Shown one piece after another: positions 2,214-49,730 of a stretch of DNA of 64,000 nt. This stretch comes from Dehalococcoidia bacterium. GTDB lineage: Bacteria; Chloroflexota; Dehalococcoidia; WHTO01. The DNA lies in contig JBBDXC010000020.1 of assembly GCA_040902555.1 (NCBI GenBank), forward strand, positions 3,528 through 67,527. Reading direction: 5' to 3'. The first letter of the stretch is position 1. Each line of letters opens with the position of its first letter. The notes under the pieces were generated by a model. It saw only the letters and a list, made by a program, of their open reading frames with translations, ran no database searches and was not told the DNA's origin. The position numbers were made by a program, and so were the translations under genes.

Positions 2214-3467
2214 TTGGTAGACTTCCGGCCCTTTCGCGGCCTGCGCTACACCGCGAAGGCCGGTCCCCTCTCGGAGCTGATTTCGCCACCCTATGACGTT
2301 CTTTCCCTCGAGCAGGTGGACCAGCTTCGCGCCCGGAACCCCGCCAACGTCATCCAACTCGAGCACCCTGCCGTTGCTCTGCGTCGCGAGCCCCAGCCAT
2401 ACGCCGCCGCGGCGCGAAAGCTGGCGGAGTGGCGTGACCAGGGCCTCCTACGGCGCGATGAGGCGCCGGGGTACTACGTCTACGATCAACACTTCGTTGA
2501 GGGCGGGGACGAGAGGCGGCGCACCGTCATCTACGGGCGGCTGCGGCTCTCTCCATGGGAGCAAGGCGAAGTGCTTCCGCACGAGTACACGATGGCCGGG
2601 CCGAAGCAGGATCGCCTCCAGCTCATGGAGGCCCTCCGGGCGAACATCAGCCCCCTCTATCTGCTCTATGATGACCCTGACGGGCACCTGACCAGACTCG
2701 TCCGCCGGGCCGAAGAGTTTGGCCCCGTGGCCGAAGCTGAGGGGACCGGCGAACGACACGTCCTCCGCCTCCTCAACGATCCGGTAATAGTCGGCTCCCT
2801 CGAGCAGGAGTTCGTCCGCAAGCGGCTCTACATGGCCGACGGACACCACCGCTACGAGACGGCTGTTGCCTTCCGTGAGCGCCACCCCGACGAGCCGGGA
2901 GCGGGCTTTGCCATGGTTGGCCTGACCGCCGGCAGCGACCTCGGCCTGTCTGTACACGCAACTCATAGGCTCTATTCGGGAGACGTGGACGGGCGCGAGC
3001 TGAGGGAGAAAATGACGGGCGACTGGGCCATCGAAGCCGTGACCGAGGCCGACCTTCTTCATAGGCTCGAAGGCCCTAATGCCGTCTTGGGAGTCGCGGG
3101 GCTAGAAGACCGAGAGACGCTGTACCTACTTCGTCCACTCCACCTCGACGAGCTTGCCGCGAGGGTCGGGGAGGGACCCGAAGTGTGGAGGAGGCTCGAT
3201 GTGAACCTTCTCCAACATGTAATTCTGGGAGAGTACCTCGGTCTCGACCCCACGGAGCCGAACCAGCCCGGGCTCAGCTACGTGCACACGGCCGAGGAGG
3301 CGATTGCAGCCGTCCGGGAGGGTAAGACCGAGCTTGCCTTCCTCCTCCGCCCAATCAGCCCTCGCGAGCTGTTCGCCGTCTCCGACACAGGCGTCCGCCT
3401 GCCGCAGAAGAGCACGTACTTCTATCCGAAACTCCCGACCGGTCTGGTGCTGAATCCCTTGGACTAG
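2214..3467 (+). CDS. DUF1015 family protein
   Basis: FRPFRGLRY, SPPYDV, LPHEYT, YMADGHHRYETA, PQKSTYFYPKL; typical serA neighbour. Confidence 0.9.
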   Translation: MVDFRPFRGLRYTAKAGPLSELISPPYDVLSLEQVDQLRARNPANVIQLEHPAVALRREPQPYAAAARKLAEWRDQGLLRRDEAPGYYVYDQHFVEGGDERRRTVIYGRLRLSPWEQGEVLPHEYTMAGPKQDRLQLMEALRANISPLYLLYDDPDGHLTRLVRRAEEFGPVAEAEGTGERHVLRLLNDPVIVGSLEQEFVRKRLYMADGHHRYETAVAFRERHPDEPGAGFAMVGLTAGSDLGLSVHATHRLYSGDVDGRELREKMTGDWAIEAVTEADLLHRLEGPNAVLGVAGLEDRETLYLLRPLHLDELAARVGEGPEVWRRLDVNLLQHVILGEYLGLDPTEPNQPGLSYVHTAEEAIAAVREGKTELAFLLRPISPRELFAVSDTGVRLPQKSTYFYPKLPTGLVLNPLD

Positions 3468-15806: not shown

Positions 15807-16050
15807 GGGTACTCCTTGGCGGCGAATTCCAACCCGCCAATGCTACCCGCGGCCGACCCGAGGACGCTCGACCAGGGCCAGAACCTGGGTGGAGTTCGAG
15901 TCCACGTCGTCACGGCTTTGATTACCTGGCGCCTGCTCGTGCGGGACGAGCCGGCGCCCTTGATGTCCGTAGGCCCCACTTGTGAGCCCGGAAGCTGCGA
16001 CAGCAGCTTCACGTTCGTTATCTTCTTACTACAGGTAAGGAGCGAACAAC

Positions 16051-16482
16051 ATGGCAACACTTACCCAACAGATGAAAGAGGCCATCACCAGCGTCCCCAC
16101 GGACAAGACCCCGTGCCTGATCGGCACCGTGTCGGCGGACGGTTGGCCGAACATTAGCTACCGCGGCAGCGTGGCTGTCTACAGCGACGACTCGCTCTCG
16201 TTCTGGAACCGTCAGCGCAAGGACACCGTCGCCAATGTTGAAGCTCATCCTCAGGTCGTTATTTTCTACACGAATCGCGAGCGCATGGCTCAGTGGCGCT
16301 TCCTGGGGCGGGCCCGGGTCGTTGACGACCCCGTGGAGCGCGAACGGATCCTCTCGATCACGCCCCAGGTTGAGCTCGACGCGGACCCCGAACTAAAGGG
16401 CGTCGGCGTCATCGTCGAACTAGAGCGGATCCTCGACTACCAGAACAATGACGTCAGCGCTGGGGCCCCTCAGGCTGCTTGA
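16051..16482 (+). CDS. pyridoxamine 5'-phosphate oxidase-like flavin-binding protein
   Basis: IGTVSADGWPNISYRGS, TVANVEAHPQV. Confidence 0.8.
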   Translation: MATLTQQMKEAITSVPTDKTPCLIGTVSADGWPNISYRGSVAVYSDDSLSFWNRQRKDTVANVEAHPQVVIFYTNRERMAQWRFLGRARVVDDPVERERILSITPQVELDADPELKGVGVIVELERILDYQNNDVSAGAPQAA

Positions 16483-16498
16483 GGGGCTGCAGCCGAGT

Positions 16499-17166
16499 TC
16501 AGCTGCTGCGGTCCTCGATCTCCCAGGCGTGGTCGAGAACATGCCAGGCGATGCGCCGGGCGGCGTAGCGGGCCGGCCAGCCCTTCGCCGCCGGCGGCGA
16601 ACCATCCGAGGCCGAGCCGAGAGCCGTAGCGATGGCTGAGCGGAGGGCTTGCACAGCGTTGGCATCGTCAAGGGCTGGCTCGGGGTGGCGGATGCCGATC
16701 TTGCGGGCGTAAGCGGCCTCAGCGTTGAGCACGTGCTGGAGGATCTTGTCGCGGCCACGCCCGCCGCCGCGCGGCCCCTTGCGCAGGGAGGCGGGAGCGC
16801 CCGCCGCGACCCCATCAAGCACAGTCCAGGCAGCTTCGACCAGCGCGGACAACCGCCCGGCCCCGCTCGGCGATAGCTGCTGAAGATCGGCCGTTGCGAC
16901 ACCACCAGGCGCGCCGAAGTCAGTCGTTGACGACCCTGGGATTCTCTCGACGACCTTAAGGCCACTTAGCCGGCGGTCGAAAAGGCACACCCGCGATTTT
17001 GGCCACCTGGGCGTAGCGTTTGCCGGCGGCGGCGAGGCTCTCCAACGCTGCGTCCTCGTCCTTGCCAGGAGCGGCACCAACCTGGCCAGTCGAGGGCACA
17101 GGCAAACACCCGGCGGTTGCCTGATTCGAGGTAGACGGGGAACGCCTTGGAAACTGGCGTGGTCAT
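16499..17166 (-). pseudogene. conserved hypothetical protein split by two frameshifts (or assembly errors)
   Basis: VYLESGNRRVFACALDWPGWCRS / GKDEDAALESLA.. / KVVERIPGSSTTDFGAPG..RRIAWHVLDHAWEIEDRS joined across shifts at about 17067 and 16982. Confidence 0.7.
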
Positions 17167-17231
17167 GGTTGTTAGTAAGTTGGCGGAGCCGTTTCCGCGG
17201 GGCGACCCCGCGAGCGGGAACCCAAGAGAAT

Positions 17232-17291
17232 TGGTGGAGCTGAGGGGACTCGAACCCCTGACCCGTCGCCTGGGCGACTGCTCTCTCAGCT
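17232..17291 (-). repeat. tRNA-Ala-derived partial copy (D-loop to CCA) with the anticodon arm replaced
   Basis: AGCTGAGAGAGCA-GTCGCCCAGGCGAC-GGGTCAGGGGTTCGAGTCCCCTCAGCTCCACCA. Confidence 0.9.
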
Positions 17292-17529
17292 TTCCTTGAG
17301 AATACGGTCGAGTTCGGCTCGTCCATGCCGACTTGAGGTACCTTTCCCTGCGAACGGCTTCTTGGCGAGATTCGTACGCCTCCGTGTGTAAGAGCTCAAA
17401 CGGCCCGCCAGCCTTTGCATAAGGACCTTTACCACTGTTGTGCTCGGAGAGGCGTCGCGCGACATCGAGGGTCGACCCCGTGTAGCGGCGACCCTTCTTC
17501 ACGCTTCTTAGGACGTACACGTAGAACAA
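17286..17529 (-). CDS. GIY-YIG nuclease, copy 2 (2-nt deletion near the C-terminus)
   Basis: MFYVYVLRSVKKGRRYTGSTLDVARRLSEHNSG..EAVRRERYLKS; frameshift at about 17330 relative to copy 1. Confidence 0.85.
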
Positions 17530-17540
17530 CGGCAGAGTAG

Positions 17541-17601
17541 TGGTGGAGCTGAGGGGACTCGAAACCCCTGACCCGTCGCCTGGGCGACTGCTCTCTCAAC
17601 T
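17541..17601 (-). repeat. tRNA-Ala-derived partial copy (D-loop to CCA) with the anticodon arm replaced
   Basis: Same as 17232-17291 except one extra T in the T-loop and one substitution near the 5' end. Confidence 0.9.
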
Positions 17602-17841
17602 CTCCTTGAGAATACGGTCGAGTTCGGCTCGTCCATGCCCTGACTTGAGGTACTTTTCCCGGCGAACGGCCTCTCGACGAGATTCGTAAGCCTCGGTGTG
17701 TAACAGCTCAAACGGCCCTCCGGCCTTTGCATAAGGACCTTTACCACTGTTGTGCTCGGAAAGGCGCCGCGCGACATCGAGGGTCGAGCCCGTGTAGCGG
17801 CGACCATTCTTCATGCTTCTCAGGACGTACACGTAGAACAA
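17596..17841 (-). CDS. GIY-YIG nuclease, copy 1 (81 aa, intact)
   Basis: YVY..YTG motifs, RRLSEHN arginine, EAVRRE glutamate; TTG start 11 nt after the tRNA CCA. Confidence 0.9.
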   Translation of the reverse strand: MFYVYVLRSMKNGRRYTGSTLDVARRLSEHNSGKGPYAKAGGPFELLHTEAYESRREAVRREKYLKSGHGRAELDRILKES

Positions 17842-17852
17842 CGGCAGAGTAG

Positions 17853-17928
17853 TGGTGGAGCTGAGGGGACTCGAACCCCTGACCCCCTGCATGCCATGCA
17901 GGTGCTCTCCCAGCTGAGCTACAGCCCC
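17853..17928 (-). tRNA. tRNA-Ala (GGC)
   Basis: 76 nt GGGGCTGTAGCTCAGCTGGGAGAGCA..CCTGC-ATGGCAT-GCAGG..GTTCGAGT..CTCCACCA; G3:U70 pair. Confidence 0.97.
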
Positions 17929-17938
17929 ACGTGAATCG

Positions 17939-17984
17939 TGACCCGTCGCCTGGGCGACTGCTCTCCCAGCTGAGCTACAGCCCC
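17939..17984 (-). repeat. tRNA-Ala-derived 5' partial copy with the anticodon arm replaced
   Basis: GGGGCTGTAGCTCAGCTGGGAGAGCA-GTCGCCCAGGCGAC-GGGTCA, 10 nt upstream of the intact tRNA. Confidence 0.9.
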
Positions 17985-18001
17985 ACGCGGACGGCCGAAT
18001 G

Positions 18002-18010
18002 ATCCTAGCA
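18002..18010 (-). promoter_or_regulatory. extended -10 promoter for the tRNA/GIY-YIG array
   Basis: TG-C-TAGGAT 17 nt upstream of the first tRNA-like copy. Confidence 0.5.
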
Positions 18011-18037
18011 GGATGGGTGCGCTGAATCAGCCGCCCC

Positions 18038-18937
18038 TCAACGGCTCGCCAGCAGCTCCAAGCACCGCCTGCCCGCCCATGTCGCACGCTCGCGATCGCC
18101 CTGCCGCCAGTGGTATTGGACCTGGCCCAGCCCGACGTGCAGCGCGTAACAAAGGCTTCGCTGCTCGAAGCCGGCGAGCCCGGCGAACACCTTGCGGTAG
18201 TGCTGCCAGTGGACCGGGAAGGACGGCGGCTGCTGCCAGAAGCGCGCCGTTGCCACGTCATAGAGCGGGTCACCGTACATGCCATCACCCCAGTCGATGA
18301 CGGCCGTGATTCGCTTCCCGTCGGTGAGGACGTTGTTGGAACCAGAGTCCCCGTGGACAAGGACGCGCTCCTCAGGGCACCCCGCCGCGAGGGCCAGGTA
18401 CCGATCAAGTACGCCCCGAAAGCCTGGAAGTTCCAGGTCATTGGCTATCAGCTCCCAGTCATGATTCTCGGCCATTGCCTGCAGGTAGTCCTGCCAGGTT
18501 ACGTAGGGCGCGCTGCCATCGGGGTCGAAATCGCCGAATCCAACTCCCGGCGCCGGCACGTTCCAGATGGCGCGCATGACGTCGACCATTTCATCGAGGA
18601 GGTTCTCGACCGTGGCCGGGCTCGCGTCCTGCACCGTCTCGCCCTCGACGAACTGTGTGAGGCAAAACCAGAGGCCCTCAACGCTTTCAATCTTCAGCAC
18701 TTCGGGGACGGGTACCGCCGTGAAGGAAAAACGCTCGAAGGCGAACAGGTCCTTGTCGAACAACCGGCGCTCCGGGTGCACACGAACGACCAGCCGCCGA
18801 TTCGTCAGGTTCACCCCGTAGGCCTGGCACTCCTCGCCCTCGGCCAGCGGGAAGAGGCTGGTCTTTGCTCCGGGGAGCATGCCCTGGACAGCGGCCACTA
18901 TCTCGGCTTCGGATAGCGATGGCTTAGGCAATGTCAC
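18038..18937 (-). CDS. aminoglycoside phosphotransferase family, APH(4)/hygromycin kinase-like
   Basis: LAEGEECQAY, CPEERVLVHGDSGSNNVLTDGKRITAVIDW..GDPLYDVA. Confidence 0.85.
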   Translation of the reverse strand: MTLPKPSLSEAEIVAAVQGMLPGAKTSLFPLAEGEECQAYGVNLTNRRLVVRVHPERRLFDKDLFAFERFSFTAVPVPEVLKIESVEGLWFCLTQFVEGETVQDASPATVENLLDEMVDVMRAIWNVPAPGVGFGDFDPDGSAPYVTWQDYLQAMAENHDWELIANDLELPGFRGVLDRYLALAAGCPEERVLVHGDSGSNNVLTDGKRITAVIDWGDGMYGDPLYDVATARFWQQPPSFPVHWQHYRKVFAGLAGFEQRSLCYALHVGLGQVQYHWRQGDRERATWAGRRCLELLASR

Positions 18938-19017
18938 ATCCGCTGTTTTCGAAACTGGTCACCGACGGATTATCCTCTCAGGTTGCATCCCTGCAACGCC
19001 AGGTCAGGAGGTTTTCA

Positions 19018-19554
19018 ATGCCCGCCTTAACTTCCAGCGAGATCGAGCAGTTTCTCTCGGAACCAGGTCATCTGTTGCGGGTTGGGACCGTCGACGAGGA
19101 AGGGACACCGCGCGTGGTACCGGTTTGGTTCCTCCACCGCGAGGGCGAGATCCTCTTCACGCCCCGGGGCCGATCCGTGCTCGAGCAGAACATCGTTCGC
19201 GACCCGCGCGTGGGTCTTTGCATCGATGAGGAGCAGGCGCCCTACCGCAAGCTGGTTGCCGGGGGCGCTGTGCGAATAGTTCAAGCGGCCGGACAGGAAG
19301 AGCAGTGGGCCGACATCTACCAGGCCATAGCCGAGCGCTACACGCCGCCGGCTTGGGCTAGCCACTACATAGAAAGCACGATGGACCAACCCCGCTCGCT
19401 CGTGGCTCTCAACCTGCCTGAGGCCGCGGTCAAGACCTGGCGGATGCCGAGGGAAGGCGAACCCGCTTCAGGCATCTGGGCGCGACACTACTACGTTCCC
19501 GGTACGCCGGCGCCGGAGCGCCTGGGCCAGTTCCCGCCGCAGCGGCCGGCGTAG
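19018..19554 (+). CDS. pyridoxamine 5'-phosphate oxidase family (PPOX/F420-type) protein
   Basis: LTSSEIEQFL..VGTVDEEGTPRVVPVWF..NIVRDPRVGLCID. Confidence 0.8.
   Translation: MPALTSSEIEQFLSEPGHLLRVGTVDEEGTPRVVPVWFLHREGEILFTPRGRSVLEQNIVRDPRVGLCIDEEQAPYRKLVAGGAVRIVQAAGQEEQWADIYQAIAERYTPPAWASHYIESTMDQPRSLVALNLPEAAVKTWRMPREGEPASGIWARHYYVPGTPAPERLGQFPPQRPA

Positions 19555-49642: not shown

Positions 49643-49730
<88 letters not shown>

Follow-up and report, generated by a model that had tools for sequence, protein, structure and literature searches.

Hairpin-bearing tRNA copies and a minimal GIY-YIG nuclease gene in a putative selfish cassette at a bacterial tRNA-Ala gene

In a 64,000-nt stretch of DNA from a Dehalococcoidia bacterium (the window), three hairpin-bearing pieces of tRNA sequence are probably the repeated boundary module of a small selfish cassette nested in a tRNA-Ala(GGC) gene, not tRNA mimics in their own right. 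The cassette family combines a gene for a minimal GIY-YIG nuclease of ~80 aa (Slx1/UPF0213 branch) with a short GC-rich hairpin, and the hairpin is located within a stretch duplicated from the tRNA gene next to it. In the window, a dead tRNA-Ala copy carries the hairpin in place of its anticodon arm and is split into two halves. Enclosed by these halves are the intact tRNA-Ala and a tandem pair of nuclease units, and every unit ends in the same 27-nt module. The way in which the cassette moves is something that we infer from these arrangements.

Layout of the tRNA-Ala(GGC) array

The one tRNA called here by ARAGORN is tRNA-Ala(GGC) on the minus strand. Read along that strand, a 5' tRNA part with the hairpin is followed by the intact tRNA and then by two tandem GIY-YIG units, both of which end in a hairpin-bearing 3' tRNA part. 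Each unit measures ~310 bp and has the nuclease reading frame as its sole gene, which is intact in one copy and frameshifted in the other. The parts are as follows.

17959..17987, minus strand: upstream partial copy, three bases of the 5' flank plus tRNA-Ala positions 1-26
17945..17958, minus strand: hairpin copy 3, in the anticodon-arm place of the upstream partial copy
17929..17944, minus strand: six variable-loop bases (17939-17944), then a 10-nt spacer
17853..17928, minus strand: intact tRNA-Ala(GGC) called by ARAGORN, with a normal 17-nt anticodon arm and a cloverleaf fold of −34.1 kcal/mol
17842..17852, minus strand: 11-nt spacer from the tRNA 3' end to reading frame 1
17596..17841, minus strand: GIY-YIG reading frame 1, 81 aa, intact, with an alternative start codon
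17541..17595, minus strand: pseudo-tRNA 1, comprising 7 nt of the D-stem 3' strand, hairpin copy 2 (17575-17588) and positions 44-76
17286..17529, minus strand: GIY-YIG reading frame 2, broken by a 2-nt deletion after ~200 nt
17232..17285, minus strand: pseudo-tRNA 2, comprising 7 nt of the D-stem 3' strand, hairpin copy 1 (17265-17278) and positions 44-76

The upstream partial copy contains the acceptor 5' strand, the D arm and position 26 (blastn-short match q1-26) and is 100% identical to 17903-17931. The final three bases of the 10-nt spacer before the intact tRNA repeat the tRNA's 5' flank. An identical copy of the 11-nt spacer stands before reading frame 2 (17530-17540), and its core also occurs at the locus of one relative (L022). 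Positions 44-76 are identical to the intact tRNA in pseudo-tRNA 2 and carry a single extra base in the T arm in pseudo-tRNA 1. Each downstream tRNA piece comes after a GIY-YIG frame whose stop codon abuts the 27-nt module. Elsewhere in the window there are no further copies of the nuclease gene or of tRNA-Ala pieces, and a tRNA-Ser at 49643-49730 has no partial copies within the window. A promoter and terminator scan of 17000-18200 gave no promoter-like site, such a scan being uninformative for DNA this GC-rich; its one terminator-like site is unrelated to the array.

The 27-nt module consists of 7 nt (the D-stem 3' strand and position 26), the 14-nt hairpin and 6 nt of the variable loop. It has three exact matches, all on the minus strand (17259-17285, 17569-17595 and 17939-17965), against a chance expectation of 0 in 100 dinucleotide-preserving shuffles. 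A sequence-only reading of this DNA had placed the three hairpins at the positions listed above, where we also find them, and had described an exact exchange of the anticodon arm (17 nt) for the hairpin. This description is borne out, the flanks being identical in the intact tRNA and the exchange exact at both borders. The overlap that it saw between the 5' and 3' partial copies is likewise real, and the shared stretch is the 27 nt of the module.

The 14-mer folds at −7.0 kcal/mol into a 5-bp stem capped by a 4-nt loop, a stability matched by 2% of mononucleotide shuffles; the argument for selection on this hairpin taken alone is weak. Between the two units the 54-nt pseudo-tRNA with its hairpin shows zero substitutions and one single-base insertion, and the GIY-YIG frames before the break differ at 16 codons (12 synonymous, 4 non-synonymous). 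The identity of the pseudo-tRNAs could reflect gene conversion with the tRNA instead of selection.

The GIY-YIG protein and the loci of its relatives

The 81-aa product of frame 1 matches Pfam PF01541 over residues 2-71 (60.8 bits, cut-off 22.6, E 1.6e-16) and is a single catalytic domain, with no accessory or DNA-binding domain. Residues Y5, Y16, G18, R26, H30 and E62, among others, are invariant in 31 aligned sequences; the tyrosines of the two N-terminal GIY-YIG motifs, the arginine and the glutamate have catalytic roles known from work on I-TevI. Nuclease activity of the protein, on DNA or on RNA, is a prediction from its sequence. In profile searches against the PDB, UPF0213 proteins were nearest (1zg2, E 2e-14; 1ywl, E 5e-11), followed by chains of SLX1, a structure-specific nuclease (E ~5e-5) and, distantly, the I-TevI domain (E 3e-3). 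These comparisons assign the protein to the minimal stand-alone Slx1/UPF0213 branch, not to UvrC or the homing enzymes, and a minimal stand-alone branch of this type is described in the accessible text of PMC1564403. Among the matches listed, no relative is closer than 58-67% protein identity. The stand-alone family comprises, by profile, 29,390 cluster representatives at an E limit of 1e-3 and 8,307 at one of 1e-10, and protein length is mostly 80-130 aa among the 150 representatives listed.

We examined the best 80 of 578 confirmed loci encoding relatives. Nearly all come from metagenome-assembled genomes, in which repeats can be misassembled, and one (L024) contains a run of N. An intact same-strand tRNA lies within 150 nt in 50 of these 80 loci, with 21 anticodon types represented. 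Across the same 80, tRNA density falls from 1.81 per kb within 200 nt to 0.061 per kb at distances above 500 nt. In some loci the reading frame runs into the downstream tRNA, with its stop 22 nt inside it in 10 loci and 9 nt inside it in four. An adjacent intact tRNA is absent from the other 30 of the best 80, about 12 of which belong to a clade with inverted-repeat ends instead. The association with GIY-YIG genes proposed in the sequence-only reading is seen in the window itself, where both downstream copies follow PF01541 frames whose stop abuts the module, two details that this reading did not mention. The design of nuclease, hairpin and tRNA recurs at these loci, which come from many bacterial phyla.

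The reading frame is flanked by partial copies of the adjacent tRNA, and in 30 of the 80 loci insertions interrupt these copies. Gapped alignment resolved 36 clean insertions in these 30 loci (best 80 of 578), 29 of which are GC-rich hairpins by a set criterion (30 of 37 with the window added) and seven of which fail it. Generic GC hairpins number 147 in the 359 kb of loci; 53 sit at most 100 nt upstream of the reading frame, 37 are at most 200 nt downstream of it, and 48 of the best 80 loci (of 578) have one within 300 nt. We estimate from the bin counts that hairpins are enriched ~60-fold beside the reading frames compared with the rest of the same loci. At upstream-type loci the hairpin sits mostly 10-55 nt before the start codon.

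A comparable substitution at homologous loci, which the sequence-only reading had named as a check, is present at the closest relative (L001). Here both flanking copies of a tRNA-Gly have a 14-nt hairpin where the 17-nt anticodon arm would be, with the same stem as in the window. The reading frame and the intact tRNA are enclosed by a direct repeat of ~33 nt that has the hairpin at its centre. At L007, L009, L022 and L036 the hairpin takes the place of one part of the anticodon stem, its 5' strand. L001, L007 and L009 have the stem type of the window, and the window and its nearest protein relatives share this type on three different tRNAs. The occurrence at L001, together with the related form in L007 and L009, leads us to reject a local accident as the source of the exact anticodon-arm replacement.

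In other clades the interruption by the hairpin falls in the D loop, in the T loop or at position 9/10. Every hairpin type favours a tRNA site of its own; the T-loop type, for example, occupies the same T-loop position in six loci with four tRNA identities. The tRNA pieces range from 9 to ~70 nt across clades, many being only 9-30 nt. Because both the hairpin site and the length of the piece vary by clade, the constant part of the design is the nuclease gene, a hairpin and a duplicated tRNA piece, and not a shape resembling tRNA. Hairpin or end type tracks the protein tree (28 changes versus 47.2 in shuffles, with a value as low in 0 of 200), and the tree contains two well-supported protein clades that each span several phyla. 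In Bacteroidota the element is a loop-less, perfect palindrome of 20 nt, and double hairpins are near-palindromes that look alike on both strands.

Pseudo-copies holding two hairpins occur at L004, L024 and L059, and at L025 a palindrome arm has expanded to 100 nt as a simple repeat. Hairpins of the same families are also found without a reading frame, at L024 (2880-2991 and 3140-3212), where they sit in dead tRNA-Arg copies, and at L049 (1641-1670), where the hairpin adjoins a tRNA-Arg. Further hairpins lie at other places in L023, L035 and L062.

Syntenic loci of Ignavibacteria carry the cassette at tRNA-Ser(GGA) in three cases (L003, L012, L042) and at tRNA-Ser(CGA) in a fourth (L035), and in each the other tRNA-Ser gene is empty. 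When we compared filled and empty flanks by pairwise local alignment, the empty-site flank scored 28-39 against the partial-copy flank versus 20-21 against the intact-tRNA flank, and 46 versus 28, in comparisons that are AT-rich and low-scoring throughout.

Movement of the cassette and other explanations

If the pieces bound a selfish cassette, its nuclease would break DNA at a tRNA gene or at an extruded hairpin, and recombinational repair across short tRNA homologies would copy the cassette into tRNA genes in a homing-like manner. The same repair might amplify it in tandem, and the tandem array at L070 fits repeated insertion that regenerates the tRNA. The hairpin would be the cassette's own cis element, serving as a structure that the nuclease reads, disrupting the target within the displaced tRNA piece, or doing both. 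The host would tolerate the insertion because one working tRNA would always be regenerated or carried along. The hairpin may be a mark for nuclease recognition or immunity; an intact tRNA always adjoins the nuclease gene, and therefore a simple hairpin-immunity reading is incomplete.

We propose more tentatively that such cassettes may form an unrecognised class of mobile element, in which a structure-specific, Slx1-like nuclease that has no other domain invades tRNA genes jointly with its cognate DNA hairpin and, in the subclade of the window, holds the tRNA hostage. There the swap of anticodon arm for hairpin would kill the resident tRNA, and the element would carry an intact replacement within it. 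Were the element lost through recombination between the hairpin repeats, a dead gene without an anticodon would be all that is left, and the effect would be an addiction mechanism without a toxin.

It seems to us unlikely that the hairpin pieces act instead as RNA, transcribed together with the tRNA and the nuclease message and serving either as decoys that lack an anticodon or as tRNA-like ends for processing or stabilisation (RNase P/Z sites, protective hairpins on the 3' or 5' side). The 3' pieces do fold into a tRNA-like Y shape (−27.5 and −26.7 kcal/mol), with an acceptor-like stem, a hairpin arm, a T arm and a free CCA end, which is compatible with an RNA role, and the Rfam tmRNA model aligns to their acceptor and T-arm parts. 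The same-strand position of the cassette in the tRNA transcription unit (50 of the best 80 of 578 loci), the proximity of the hairpin to the start codon at most upstream-type loci and the recurrence of the anticodon-arm substitution in L001 point in the same direction. However, the tmRNA alignments score only 23 and 13.5 bits, far under the gathering score (47), and ARAGORN accepts only the intact tRNA and not one of the hairpin-bearing copies. Hairpins in the D loop, in the T loop or at position 9/10, together with pieces of 9-30 nt, leave no common tRNA-like fold, and the Bacteroidota palindrome and the strand-symmetric double hairpins point to DNA as the relevant form. Cleavage by RNase P at the acceptor-like stem would, moreover, strip the stop codon from the nuclease message. 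The pair G3:U70 is the identity element of AlaRS, and the fold of unit 2 has A:U at its position.

The sequence-only reading survives in part. It had argued that these are not ordinary att duplications and had linked them to GIY-YIG genes, and on both counts we agree; its proposed purpose of anticodon-less mimics or decoys is not supported, given the clade-dependent hairpin site, the rejection of the copies by ARAGORN and Rfam and the loss of G3:U70 in unit 2.

We also consider it improbable that the hairpins are independent palindromic repeats (REP- or MITE-like) that settled secondarily in expendable tRNA fragments produced by some other, unrelated duplication, their link with the nuclease being indirect. 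The hairpins without a reading frame in L024 and L049 could indeed be independent small repeats, and the hairpins elsewhere in L023, L035 and L062, the simple-repeat expansion in L025 and the two-hairpin pseudo-copies also count in favour of this view. Against this stand the estimated ~60-fold concentration of hairpins beside the reading frames and the way in which hairpin type follows protein clade across phyla. The sharing of one stem type on three tRNAs by the window and its nearest relatives, and the preferred tRNA site of each type, as in the T-loop group, also speak against an indirect link.

A host function, with the small GIY-YIG protein as a factor in tRNA metabolism and the tRNA-like pieces as its regulatory leader or trailer, appears very improbable. 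According to the accessible text of PMC1564403, an RNA role was suggested by earlier authors on the strength of a prokaryotic Slx1-like domain fused with a TrmH-type tRNA methyltransferase, and the gene does adjoin same-strand tRNA genes. Yet tandem arrays, frameshifted copies, varying tRNA identities, differences between filled and empty syntenic sites and protein clades that cross phyla are marks of a mobile element, not of a housekeeping operon.

Least credible of all is that the pieces are ordinary attL/attR duplications from integrase-mediated islands or prophages, with the hairpin as divergent att sequence. As the accessible part of PMC9897764 sets out, integration of this kind is classically recognised by partial 3' tRNA copies downstream of a tRNA, and partial tRNA genes lie at the ends of integrase-borne islands and prophages. 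But there is no integrase and no tyrosine or serine recombinase domain in the seven neighbouring frames scanned, the frame adjoining the array has no match in Pfam or NCBIfam, and the inserts are tandem, nuclease-only units of ~310 bp whose tRNA copies are interrupted or substituted by hairpins and include a modified 5' half upstream of the tRNA as well as 3' pieces. The relatives likewise pair 21 anticodon types with genes for 80-aa nucleases and no integrase in view. We therefore rule out integrase att-site duplication, given the lack of a recombinase among these frames, the 310-bp units and the 5' copy upstream.

Known systems and significance

The mitochondrial genomes of fungi and other organisms contain mobile GC-rich hairpins and double hairpins that multiply there and are found next to tRNA genes and together with homing endonuclease genes. 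The resemblance to the selfish cassette proposed here lies in short, GC-rich single or double hairpins near both kinds of gene. These mitochondrial hairpins are organellar and, to our knowledge, have no fixed partner gene and have not been reported as substitutes for tRNA arms; in the bacterial cassette the hairpin type tracks the nuclease clade.

Elements of the IS200/IS605 type and REP sequences with RAYT are hairpin-ended, and their HUH tyrosine transposases both cut and rejoin DNA. The cassette is similarly small, with cis sites that are DNA hairpins and are plausibly read by its own small nuclease. A GIY-YIG domain, in contrast, only cuts, and therefore host recombination or repair would have to finish the process; none of the frames scanned next to the array encodes a HUH transposase.

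Group I introns with GIY-YIG endonuclease genes occur in the anticodon loops of bacterial tRNAs, and here too a GIY-YIG gene is tied to the anticodon region. The array differs in that no ribozyme was detected in it and in that a working tRNA is preserved through duplication instead of splicing. A search of 16000-19500 against Rfam 15 at E up to 1 returned only tRNA- or tmRNA-type matches and no intron family, which rules out a group I intron or other known RNA family.

SegB-type enzymes carry a DNA-binding part, whereas the 81-aa window protein, of the Slx1/UPF0213 branch, consists of its catalytic domain alone; we looked for the sequence-specific DNA-binding module of a homing endonuclease and found the catalytic domain only. 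SegB of phage T4 is described in the accessible text of PMC2330249 as the product of a free-standing GIY-YIG homing endonuclease gene in a tRNA gene cluster, so that in both systems a GIY-YIG nuclease gene lies among or beside tRNA genes. Spread is presumed in both to proceed, on the SegB side as given in that text, through a break in the nuclease-free allele and recombinational repair that co-converts the flanks. The accessible text of PMC2330249 mentions neither a hairpin element nor interrupted, duplicated tRNA pieces, and cassettes of the window type are chromosomal and found across many bacterial phyla. We found no description of tRNA-nested minimal GIY-YIG cassettes with hairpins in a full-text search, outside which subscription journals largely fell.

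The UPF0213/Slx1-like GIY-YIG proteins that stand alone are a very large family to which no role has been assigned. Our results suggest that a large part of it consists of tiny selfish cassettes that live in tRNA genes, and this would, if true, give the family a biological context. Integrases and CRISPR spacers would then not be the only sources of tRNA gene fragments, which matters for tRNA annotation because such fragments are often miscalled. A system as compact as an 80-aa nuclease, a 14-30-nt hairpin and a tRNA gene would, finally, offer a model for how a nuclease without a DNA-binding domain finds its target and for how a host tRNA can be replaced or held hostage.

The array around tRNA-Ala and its nuclease gene

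The only tRNA that ARAGORN identified at the array is a minus-strand tRNA-Ala(GGC) (17853-17928). Read along the minus strand, the elements of the array are arranged as follows:

1. 5' piece: 3 flank bases and tRNA positions 1-26, the hairpin, 6 variable-loop bases
2. Spacer, 10 nt
3. Intact tRNA-Ala
4. Spacer, 11 nt
5. 81-aa reading frame, with its stop codon touching the 27-nt module
6. 27-nt module, running on into tRNA positions 44-76
7. The 11-nt spacer again, identical
8. Second copy of the reading frame, disrupted by a 2-nt deletion
9. Second module and positions 44-76

The 27-nt module is composed of 7 nt of the D-stem 3' strand (including position 26), a 14-nt hairpin and 6 nt of the variable loop. 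It has three exact matches (17259-17285, 17569-17595 and 17939-17965); the number predicted by chance is zero. In the intact tRNA-Ala the same two flanks surround a normal 17-nt anticodon arm, so the substitution of the hairpin for the arm is exact at either border, as the sequence-only reading had claimed. Neither further copies of the nuclease gene nor further pieces of tRNA-Ala occur outside the array in the 64-kb window, and a recombinase domain is absent from all seven neighboring frames scanned, which include a phosphotransferase-family kinase, two PNPOx-like proteins and one frame without family matches. The minus-strand frame immediately downstream of the array (16499-17167), for which no match was found in Pfam or NCBIfam, seems to switch frame (overlapping frames at 16966-17167 and 16499-17326). 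Also beside the array is an 18-nt GC-rich inverted repeat (16585-16602 and 17018-17035, 89% complementary, arms 415 nt apart), one arm of which is itself a 9-bp palindrome. The ClpB encoded in the window shares about 70% identity with proteins assigned to Dehalococcoidia, other Chloroflexi, Thermomicrobiales and Vicinamibacterales, a weak indication that the host may be Chloroflexota-like.

The reading frame of the array encodes a GIY-YIG domain (PF01541, E = 1.6e-16). Upstream of the frameshift, 16 of the first 66 codons differ between the two gene copies, and because 12 of these differences are synonymous and 4 non-synonymous, the comparison indicates that purifying selection has acted on the nuclease protein ever since the divergence of the copies. 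Preservation of the non-coding module is at least as good as that of the protein, with no substitutions and one single-base insertion between the two copies of the 54-nt hairpin-bearing pseudo-tRNA and no difference between those of the 11-nt spacer. Gene conversion with the tRNA could account for most of this identity, the hairpin itself excepted.

Homologs of the protein are numerous and 80-100 aa long, the top ones sharing 63-67% identity with it. A family profile built from 31 homologs matched 29,390 cluster representatives at E ≤ 1e-3 and 8,307 at E ≤ 1e-10, mostly of 80-130 aa. In some representatives of 157-214 aa (P0243, P0245, P0247 and others), the 80-aa domain is matched twice along the sequence; such double-domain proteins would be the expected outcome of read-through across tandem arrays of the cassette (nuclease gene, GC-rich hairpin and duplicated tRNA piece). 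Among solved structures, two UPF0213 proteins without a known function are the closest, followed by the structure-specific nuclease SLX1; the I-TevI catalytic domain is distant. The passages of an earlier survey that deal with prokaryotic Slx1-like proteins describe them as the minimal stand-alone form of the GIY-YIG domain and do not mention tRNA-gene neighborhoods (PMC1564403).

tRNA genes and hairpins at related loci

A genome scan confirmed 578 loci encoding relatives of the protein, and the best 80 of these (designated by L and a number) were analyzed. An intact tRNA on the same strand lies within 150 nt in 50 of the 80 (downstream in 31, upstream in 15 and on both sides in 4), covering 21 anticodon types, and across the 80 loci tRNA density within 200 nt of the frames is about 30 times that beyond 500 nt. 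The nuclease stop codon falls inside the downstream tRNA by 22 nt in 10 of the 80 loci and by 9 nt in 4. Partial copies of the neighboring tRNA flank the frames, and gapped alignment revealed 36 clean insertions of at least 14 nt within such copies, across 30 loci; 29 of the 36 are GC-rich hairpins (60% or more paired, and no more than 5% of shuffles equally stable). Generic GC hairpins are also clustered at the frames, 53 of 147 within 100 nt upstream and 37 of 147 within 200 nt downstream. At locus L018 (2747-3018), a tRNA 5' part directly follows the reading frame, and 179 nt further downstream ARAGORN reports a 94-nt tRNA of unassigned type whose anticodon has four bases; this could represent a different kind of interrupted tRNA.

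Hairpin types differ among loci. Bacteroidota loci carry a 20-nt perfect palindrome without a loop (e.g. L024, 2368-2387), usually between A and G, at raw positions 9/10, 22/23, 32/33 or 39/40. A 30-nt double hairpin (e.g. L008, 283-312) occupies an identical point of the T loop in six loci with four tRNA identities, and two further double-hairpin types are located in the D loop. The relatives of one clade, 86 aa in length, have no neighboring tRNA (L013, L017, L027, L034, L043, L056, L063, L066, L069, L071 and L073). Their frame, at about 2501-2761 in most loci, lies within an inverted repeat of about 11-14 nt, and the conserved C-terminus is encoded in the downstream arm of this repeat. In several phyla the frame is found between unrelated genes or at their ends. 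This inverted repeat looks like a second end type of the same nuclease family. With types labeled from rough patterns and a tree built on 86 columns, hairpin or end type tracks the protein tree (28 changes versus 47.2 in shuffles, none of 200 being as low), in which two supported clades each include several phyla. At L025 (2369-2468), the site of its relatives' 20-nt palindrome is taken up by 100 nt of a repeated four-base unit, an expansion of one palindrome arm that looks like slippage during DNA replication.

Layouts, proposed movement and level of action

In the tRNA-downstream layout, a 5' piece, the hairpin, a few extra tRNA bases and the frame precede the intact tRNA (L070 has two units of this type in tandem), and in the tRNA-upstream layout (L016, L031 and L035) the intact tRNA is followed by the frame and a 3' piece carrying the hairpin. 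The window and loci L001 and L015 have the intact tRNA and the frame lying between two parts of a dead, hairpin-bearing tRNA; the hairpin of L015 is a T-loop double hairpin. Read as a circle, every cassette would run from the frame through a tRNA 5'-side stretch, the hairpin and a tRNA 3'-side stretch back to the frame. A single exchange between this hairpin-interrupted tRNA-like stretch and a chromosomal tRNA, on either side of the hairpin, would yield both the tRNA-upstream and the tRNA-downstream layouts. We infer this common logic from anatomy; no exchange intermediate was seen among the loci examined.

In syntenic Ignavibacteria loci, tRNA-Ser(CGA) is followed by a gene and then by tRNA-Ser(GGA); the cassette is at tRNA-Ser(GGA) in L003, L012 and L042 and at tRNA-Ser(CGA) in L035, the other tRNA being empty in each. 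The native flanks of the empty sites are closer to the partial-copy flank than to the intact-tRNA flank (scores of 28-39 versus 20-21 and of 46 versus 28), the scores being modest and the DNA AT-rich. Dead tRNA copies with a hairpin but no frame occur in L024 and L049, and fit non-autonomous derivatives of the cassette and separate tiny palindromic repeats colonizing dead tRNA fragments equally well. The L024 copies (2880-2991 and 3140-3212) are full-length tRNA-Arg sequences separated by a run of N. Two 20-nt palindromes inactivate each of them, and the terminator-like sequence that follows the intact tRNA also follows both copies. The way the cassette moves and the precise role of its hairpin are inferences.

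Alternatively, the hairpin-bearing pieces might act as RNA, for example as a tRNA mimic. The 3' pieces are predicted to be able to fold as a Y with an acceptor-like stem, a hairpin arm, a T arm and a free CCA, and their ends align weakly to the Rfam tmRNA model, but no fold is common across clades, the palindromes lack a loop or read the same from either strand, the fold of unit 2 has lost the AlaRS identity pair and an RNase P cut at the 3' piece would sever the nuclease stop codon. We consider a role at the DNA level more likely than an RNA mimic, with a possible contribution from RNA.

Anticodon-arm substitution in the nearest relatives

The stem type of the window was seen five more times, in L001, L007 and L009, which rank among the nearest relatives of its protein (58% identity for L001). 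Both flanking copies of tRNA-Gly(GCC) in L001 have a 14-nt hairpin instead of the 17-nt anticodon arm, and a direct repeat of about 33 nt with the hairpin at its center brackets the frame and the intact tRNA. Of the 33 positions in the 3' part of the downstream copy (2838-2870), 5 do not match the local tRNA, and among these are compensatory changes that preserve T-stem pairing; this part may be donor-derived or structurally constrained. In L007 and L009 (tRNA-Pro), as in L022 and L036 (tRNA-Asn, Dehalococcoidia), the hairpin takes the place of the anticodon stem's 5' strand, about 6 bases long. Substitution at the anticodon arm is thus a recurrent trait of the window's subclade and not a local accident. 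The frame of L036 (73-339) continues through the hairpin, and its stop codon comes from anticodon-loop bases of the next tRNA-Asn 3' part.

The hairpin substitution is real and is seen again among the nearest relatives, and other clades use other hairpin sites. Full-text literature searches gave no description of a tRNA-nested arrangement of GIY-YIG gene and hairpin, and where one account addresses the sources of prokaryotic tRNA gene fragments, element integration and CRISPR activity are the only ones named (PMC9897764). The array of the window belongs to a widespread and seemingly undescribed cassette family.
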